The notes below the pieces were generated by a model that worked only from the letters and a program-made list of their open reading frames with translations, was not told the DNA's origin and did no database searches. From the NCBI RefSeq assembly GCF_044324875.1, contig NZ_CP172185.1: a stretch of 64,000 nt of DNA, one strand, 5' to 3'. This document shows, one piece after another, positions 44,683-44,817 of this stretch. This DNA is from Escherichia coli (GTDB lineage Bacteria > Pseudomonadota > Gammaproteobacteria > Enterobacterales > Enterobacteriaceae). A program made the translations under genes and the position numbers. Every line of letters begins with the position of its first letter. The first letter of the stretch is position 1.

Positions 44683-44723
44683 AATCAAACAGCTCCTACA
44701 CAGTAAAATAATAACAATTATGT

Positions 44724-44742
44724 CAATAATGATTATCATTAT
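44724..44742 (-). promoter_or_regulatory. Fur box in the iucA promoter, shared divergent intergenic region with shiF
   Basis: Minus strand reads GATAATGATAATCATTAT, then TGACATAATTGTTATTATTTTAC. Confidence 0.8.
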
Positions 44743-44817
44743 CAATGAGAAATGTTATTGTCAGAAAAATTAATTTTACAAATAAACACAATTAATACAT
44801 GGTGTTGAAACATTACA

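Follow-up and report, generated by a model that had tools for sequence, protein, structure and literature searches.

The Fur site in the intergenic gap between iucA and shiF of an Escherichia coli aerobactin locus is the aerobactin (iucABCD-iutA) operator itself, which is already known, and very probably Fur occludes the iucA promoter P1 there, IucA is initiated at the ATG at 44682 and the same Fur-bound region represses the divergent shiF. Positions are those of the window, the whole stretch of 64,000 nucleotides that was analysed. The aerobactin operator is the sequence behind the Fur-box concept, and the promoter-operator of pColV-K30 is the prototype Fur operator (Bagg and Neilands 1987; de Lorenzo et al. 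1987; Escolar et al. 2000). Both Fur occupancy and the Fur- or iron-dependent expression of the two genes have been published in close relatives of this locus. The genes concerned are arranged as follows.

36711-38912, minus strand: iutA, aerobactin operon
38994-40271, minus strand: iucD, aerobactin operon
40268-42010, minus strand: iucC, aerobactin operon
42010-42957, minus strand: iucB, aerobactin operon
42958-44682, minus strand: iucA coding sequence, 574 aa, beginning MILPSEK; RefSeq WP_000602863.1 has identical coordinates
44818-46011, plus strand: shiF, a 397-aa ORF for an MFS transporter; PGAP 'MFS transporter' WP_000095521.1

The preliminary description had placed a 135-bp gap between iucA and shiF, and the gap was indeed found at 44683-44817, between the ATG at 44682 and the ATG at 44818, with an A+T content of 77%. 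Domain searches of the two products recovered the domains expected of IucA, a type A NIS synthetase (Pfam PF04183 IucA_IucC at 3e-46 and PF06276 FhuF-like at 4e-34) and an MFS_1 match for ShiF (2e-19), so that the latter has both the MFS fold and the divergent position next to iucA. A 1-kb stretch around the gap matched 1860 E. coli records, annotated as 'aerobactin synthase IucA' and 'MFS transporter', and the two genes were divergent neighbours in 1857 of these as well as in ~1500 plasmids. The matches fell into four identity bands, with ColV-type plasmids and some chromosomes at 99-100%, chromosomal loci of the ST131/CFT073 type at ~93%, an E. fergusonii plasmid at ~90% and Klebsiella virulence plasmids at 81-83%. 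Across six lineages the 135-bp gap contained zero indels. No RNA family came up when 44300-45200 was compared with Rfam at E<=1.

The chromosome of a chicken isolate, NZ_CP033635, was 99.87% identical to the window over 26036-47159 by BLAST; no single fixed offset gives base-for-base collinearity between the two, which at this identity points to small differences. In that chromosome the aerobactin operon sits in an IS-rich island beside sitABCD. Two further features of the neighbourhood were recorded. The iucD ORF is 425 aa long and PGAP marks iucD as 'frameshifted' in the chromosome nearly identical to the window as well as in a plasmid of the ColV type, which looks like a lineage-wide C-terminal difference from a longer reference model and not like damage specific to the window. 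Just downstream of shiF, within a frameshifted ISL3-family transposase pseudogene, there is an 18-bp tandem repeat of TATCCCGTATTACAGGCT at 47127-47195 (3.4 copies, 97% match).

The Fur box that had been claimed from the sequence was recovered on the minus strand, where 44743 to 44726 reads GATAATGATAATCATTAT and the full 19-mer, 44743 to 44725, reads GATAATGATAATCATTATT. The latter scores 18/19 against the palindromic 19-bp Fur consensus GATAATGATAATCATTATC, a match to which is equivalent to three or more adjoining NATWAT hexamers, and read on the plus strand the site still scores 17/19; the box is near-palindromic, and its assignment to the minus strand is therefore a matter of convention only. 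It is the sole position in the 64-kb window with three or fewer mismatches from the consensus, against 0.02 expected from shuffles, and its right half, TCATTATCAA, is invariant in the six lineages. It does not stand by itself, and a cluster of weaker sites surrounds it.

44725-44743, minus strand: core Fur box, three perfect NATWAT hexamers GATAAT-GATAAT-CATTAT
44704-44762: cluster of overlapping Fur-like 19-mers, mostly in a 3-bp register

Within the 135-bp gap 12 19-mers scoring at least 11/19 were observed, compared with 2.98 +/- 1.97 in composition-matched shuffles, of which a fraction of ~0.001 reached the observed number, and 11 of the 12 fall within 44704-44762. This segment is, as predicted from its motifs, an extended operator of primary and secondary sites lying over P1, from upstream of the -35 hexamer to about +1. 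Chen 2007 built a Fur model from two footprinted stretches of the ColV-K30 iucA promoter, where the extended Fur footprint is 103 bp (positions quoted on GenBank M10930), and found Fur sites spaced by 3 and 6 bp in the footprinted regions (PMC2189734); the stack of Fur-like sites in a 3-bp register in the window has the same pattern. The motif GATAATGAGAATCATTATT was found by Banerjee 2020 under a Fur ChIP-seq peak in CFT073 (PMC7157518). Identity between E. coli and Klebsiella was 0.83 over the Fur box (44725-44743) and 0.82 over a block at 44766-44813, compared with 0.56-0.69 over the rest of the gap and 0.78 at the third codon positions of iucA.

Elsewhere in the window, a second Fur-like box, ATTAATGATAACCATTTGC (14/19), was seen at 30558-30576, 76 bp upstream of sitABCD (sitA ATG at 30652). 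The corresponding sequence of CFT073, GCTAATGATAATCATTTTC, was identified as a Fur site by ChIP-seq (Banerjee 2020, PMC7157518), so that the island holds a second Fur-controlled uptake operon, for iron and manganese.

The box had been called canonical, which holds for its score of 18/19, yet the GAT of its middle hexamer is a minority allele. At 44734 the window has A on the plus strand and T on the minus strand, giving GATAAT, whereas GAGAAT is found in the ColV-type, ST131-type and E. fergusonii lineages and in both Klebsiella lineages; judged from this alignment, the T allele is the derived one. Of 1820 E. coli records, 50 had an exact match to a 61-mer with this allele, and most of the 50 are chromosomes from poultry (chicken) or human isolates. 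With T instead of G the box scores 18/19 and not 17/19 against the consensus, and each of its three hexamers is perfect; on the shiF strand a candidate -35 reads TTATCA in place of TTCTCA, and a -10-like TATCAT arises. It seems rather unlikely that the T allele is other than neutral, in the sense that aerobactin would be more tightly repressed by Fur, or the relative expression of iucA and shiF altered, in the poultry- and human-associated chromosomal islands that carry it, and a measurable effect, if true, would be of minor interest. All published work on Fur binding and on expression concerns the GAG allele (ColV-type, CFT073), and the window carries the GAT allele.

The best sigma-70 match of the region, at 10/12 with TG, is oriented towards iucA and overlaps the Fur box.

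44717-44745, minus strand: P1, with -35 TTGATA (44745 to 44740), a 17-nt spacer with TGn and -10 CATAAT (44722 to 44717)

The predicted transcript start lies near 44711. A match was present at the equivalent position in the ST131-type and Klebsiella loci, and the -35 hexamer was identical in all six lineages. The Fur box runs from the last base of this hexamer through the spacer, and the 44704-44762 cluster covers both hexamers. There is presumably a second, upstream iucA promoter, P2, and the start positions taken for P1 and P2, like the direction in which the Fur footprint extends, are predicted ones.

The position of P1 bears directly on the start codon of iucA. The six-frame ORF, 42958-44745, opens with a TTG and places MIMIIIIDIIVIILLCRSCLI ahead of MILPSEK, with the ATG at 44682 as codon 22. 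This ORF had been said to begin, with a poly-Ile leader, at a TTG inside the operator; the TTG at 44745 and the leader exist as described, but the overlap of the TTG with the 19-bp core is limited to its G. The P1 -35 hexamer TTGATA opens with this TTG, and the predicted P1 transcript starts ~34 nt downstream of it; the TTG is thus promoter DNA upstream of the transcript and not a start codon. The further claim, that the iucA start is thereby re-assigned, holds for the ORF as called mechanically and for a minority of the entries in GenBank, although the accepted annotation already uses the ATG at 44682. The elements that distinguish the two starts are the following.

44693-44697, minus strand: Shine-Dalgarno AGGAG, 10 nt upstream of the ATG at 44682 and 4 nt upstream of an in-frame TTG (44688)
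44683-44745, minus strand: 21-codon extension, comprising operator, promoter and 5' UTR

Support for the ATG at 44682, the start preferred in the preliminary description, came from RefSeq, from the crystallised protein 5JM7, from the position of P1, from the Shine-Dalgarno sequence and from codon evolution. In all six records fetched, which between them cover five lineages, PGAP/RefSeq gives iucA a length of 1725 nt (574 aa); the start annotated in one of these (L001) maps exactly onto 44682. In the crystallised protein from K. pneumoniae, 5JM7, the first Met falls opposite residue 22 of the long ORF, and the alignment (E = 0) pairs chain residues 3-575 with residues 22-594 and is collinear over the full length. 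The AGGAG forms a duplex with the 16S rRNA 3' end at -6.5 kcal/mol (random 20-mers -2.3 +/- 2.4), its spacing of 10 nt from the ATG being close to the longest that is usual; GGAG/GGGA is retained in the E. coli-type lineages and the Shine-Dalgarno is weaker in Klebsiella. No Shine-Dalgarno was detected at the TTG at 44745 (dG +0.7 kcal/mol) or at the in-frame ATG at 44739 (+0.6).

The 21-codon poly-Ile extension is non-coding. Its frame is open in five of the six lineages and is interrupted by an in-frame stop in one Klebsiella lineage (L004), and its amino-acid identity to Klebsiella is 0.43-0.48, as against 0.75-0.77 for the first 100 codons. Substitutions at first, second and third codon positions numbered 7, 8 and 3 in the extension and 17, 12 and 24 in the coding part, the extension being without third-position bias. 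That the long ORF is nevertheless real, a hydrophobic poly-Ile N-terminus being translated from the TTG at 44745 or the ATG at 44739, for example on P2 transcripts, is improbable in the extreme. A P2-like -10, TAAAAT, does lie upstream at 44778 to 44773, the open frame in most lineages would permit such translation, and both forms have been deposited in GenBank and UniRef. When the N-terminal forms were counted by contigs across public protein databases, a 595-aa IucA from the TTG at 44745 was found on 20 contigs (e.g. EFN8687324.1, UniRef A0A2K3TKF2) and a 593-aa IucA from the ATG at 44739 on 45, including APEC O1 ABD51743.1, compared with at least 1000 contigs for the 574-aa form. Against the long ORF stand the stop codon, the low identity, the substitution pattern and the lack of a Shine-Dalgarno; moreover the -35 hexamer and the Fur box make up the extension codons and account for their conservation, the predicted main transcript begins downstream of them and active IucA is without them.

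It is also very unlikely that IucA is initiated at the in-frame TTG at 44688 to give 576 aa (MIMILPSEK...). All six lineages have this TTG, which is downstream of the predicted P1 start, shares the AGGAG with the ATG at 44682 and is used by one GenBank entry, AHF23196.1, but it is just 4 nt from the AGGAG, too close for efficient initiation, compared with 10 nt for the ATG. TTG is in addition a weaker initiator than ATG, and RefSeq, the crystallised active protein and the predominant 574-aa form all use the ATG. With initiation at 44682 preferred, a practical consequence is that naive ORF callers will reproduce a spurious 593- to 595-aa IucA whose N-terminus is translated promoter and operator, as has happened in a minority of GenBank and UniRef entries.

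The suggestion that one Fur-controlled region may serve both iucA and shiF proved to have been published already (Lemaitre 2012, Banerjee 2020). Lemaitre 2012 stated shared Fur control of shiF outright and reported a 7.7 to 17.7-fold induction of shiF in serum, urine and iron-depleted broth (PMC3438092). In CFT073, Banerjee 2020 found Fur ChIP-seq peaks for iucA (peak 341) and shiF (peak 331) and derepression in a fur mutant of 119-fold for iucA and 32-fold for shiF, assigned the GATAATGAGAATCATTATT motif to both genes alike and listed shiF as a direct Fur target (PMC7157518). Genuini 2019 repeated the statement of shared Fur control and showed that deletion of shiF approximately halves secreted aerobactin; the name ShiF and its auxiliary role in aerobactin secretion are given in the same work (PMC6918656). 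The window itself confirms the divergent geometry, and the Fur response of both genes is taken from this literature. A literature search for the shiF transcription start found nothing relevant, and the supplements of a genome-wide start-site study of Shigella flexneri M90T held zero iucA, iucB or shiF entries. As a mapped shiF start is absent from the literature found, the architecture of the often-cited 'shared Fur box' is still an assumed one.

Of the promoter-like arrangements on the shiF strand, only one was kept in all six lineages.

44733-44761, plus strand: candidate shiF promoter, with -35 TTATCA (44733-44738), a 17-nt spacer ending TGT and -10 TATTGT (44756-44761)

At the aligned positions this candidate scores 8-9/12 in the six lineages, with TGn in five. 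The Klebsiella version, TTCTCA-17-TAGAAT, was called by the promoter scan (9/12 with TG), whereas the E. coli version, at 8/12, was below the scan's threshold. From this conservation we infer that TTMTCA-17-TGnTATTGT at 44733-44761 is the likely shiF promoter. Its -35, which reads TTCTCA in the other lineages, falls inside the Fur box and is back-to-back with the P1 -35, so that one Fur complex would occlude both promoters; P1 overlaps the box, and the overlap on the shiF side rests on the predicted -35 at 44733-44738, scoring 8-9/12.

Three other plus-strand arrangements were considered and set aside. TTAATA-16-TACAAT (44792-44819) has a -10 that overlaps the shiF ATG, so that its transcript would not include that codon, and Klebsiella does not have the arrangement; the -35 of TTGTCA-17-AATAAA (44758-44786) scores 0-1/6 in Klebsiella, which disqualifies it as a general shiF promoter; and ATAACA-17-TATCAT (44711-44739) exists only with the T allele of the window and cannot be a conserved shiF promoter. 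The shiF start codon also differs between lineages. In E. coli-type loci it is an ATG preceded by a weak Shine-Dalgarno (-2.8 kcal/mol), and in Klebsiella (L003/L004) the annotated start is an ATG seven codons downstream. The two starts are exclusive, as E. coli has ACG at the position of the Klebsiella start and Klebsiella has ACG in place of the E. coli ATG, and the segment between them (44818-44838) is the least conserved of the region, at 0.47 identity.

Divergent iron-uptake genes around one short, A+T-rich, Fur-bound region are also a feature of the enterobactin cluster, whose bidirectional Fur promoters include fepA-fes, with one operator and two overlapping promoters, fepB-entC, with two operators, and fepD-entS (PMC2189734). 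The conserved back-to-back -35 hexamers suggest that shiF-iucA may have an architecture of the fepA-fes type. The contrasting arrangement, of the fepB-entC type, would involve the second conserved segment of the gap.

44766-44813, on the shiF side: conserved A+T-rich block, 48 bp, E. coli versus Klebsiella 0.82

On the iucA strand this block contains the -10-like TAAAAT (44778 to 44773), identical in the six lineages, and by eye none of the resemblances to IHF, CRP or ArcA half-sites within it was convincing. The block may correspond to P2 upstream of iucA, to extension sites with low affinity for Fur or to the 5' UTR of shiF. Conceivably, though it is the less favoured arrangement and a doubtful one, shiF could be Fur-regulated from a promoter of its own within 44766-44813, through separate low-affinity sites or by spreading of Fur. 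The block is conserved as well as the Fur box, it includes a weak Fur-like 19-mer (44781-44799, 11/19), and the published 103-bp extended footprint is long enough to reach it (PMC2189734). Promoter-like hexamers of the E. coli lineages also occur in the block region, namely the TTGTCA-17-AATAAA and TTAATA-16-TACAAT already mentioned, but in Klebsiella these score 0-3/6 in one or both hexamers, and the position of TACAAT over the shiF ATG counts against the latter in E. coli as well. There are no perfect NATWAT hexamers beyond 44743, and ChIP-seq assigned one motif to both genes (PMC7157518), though its resolution cannot separate sites 40 bp apart. A single operator at 44704-44762 acting on both P1 and the candidate shiF promoter at 44733-44761 is thus the preferred reading.

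Comparison with known systems placed the locus among described aerobactin regions. The operator of pColV-K30 represents the same locus, the ColV type being 99.5% identical over 1 kb; the 135-bp gap is identical bar one base, and the P1 hexamers, the Shine-Dalgarno sequence and the ATG are shared. The one difference is in the middle hexamer of the Fur box, GAGAAT in the prototype and GATAAT in the window. Shigella SHI-2, pS88 and the CFT073 island (Moss 1999; Lemaitre 2012; Genuini 2019; Banerjee 2020) likewise have shiF and iucA in divergent orientation around a 135-bp gap that contains a single Fur box, with zero structural differences from the window and with ~93% identity for the CFT073/ST131 type.

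The significance of the analysis is slight beyond annotation hygiene, as the operator, the IucA start and the shared control of shiF were all already known. In the proposed mechanism, metal-loaded Fur dimers would under iron-sufficient conditions occupy the 44725-44743 core and the weaker overlapping sites over 44704-44762, and the Fur-bound stretch would cover the P1 -35 (TTGATA) and -10 (CATAAT), so that RNA polymerase would be shut out. When iron is scarce Fur would depart and P1 would fire from ~44711, producing a ~29-nt leader whose AGGAG would direct initiation at the ATG at 44682 and yield the 574-aa IucA. The Fur-occupied region would also repress the divergent shiF, whose MFS product boosts aerobactin secretion, and aerobactin synthesis, uptake and help with export would in this way be switched on together.
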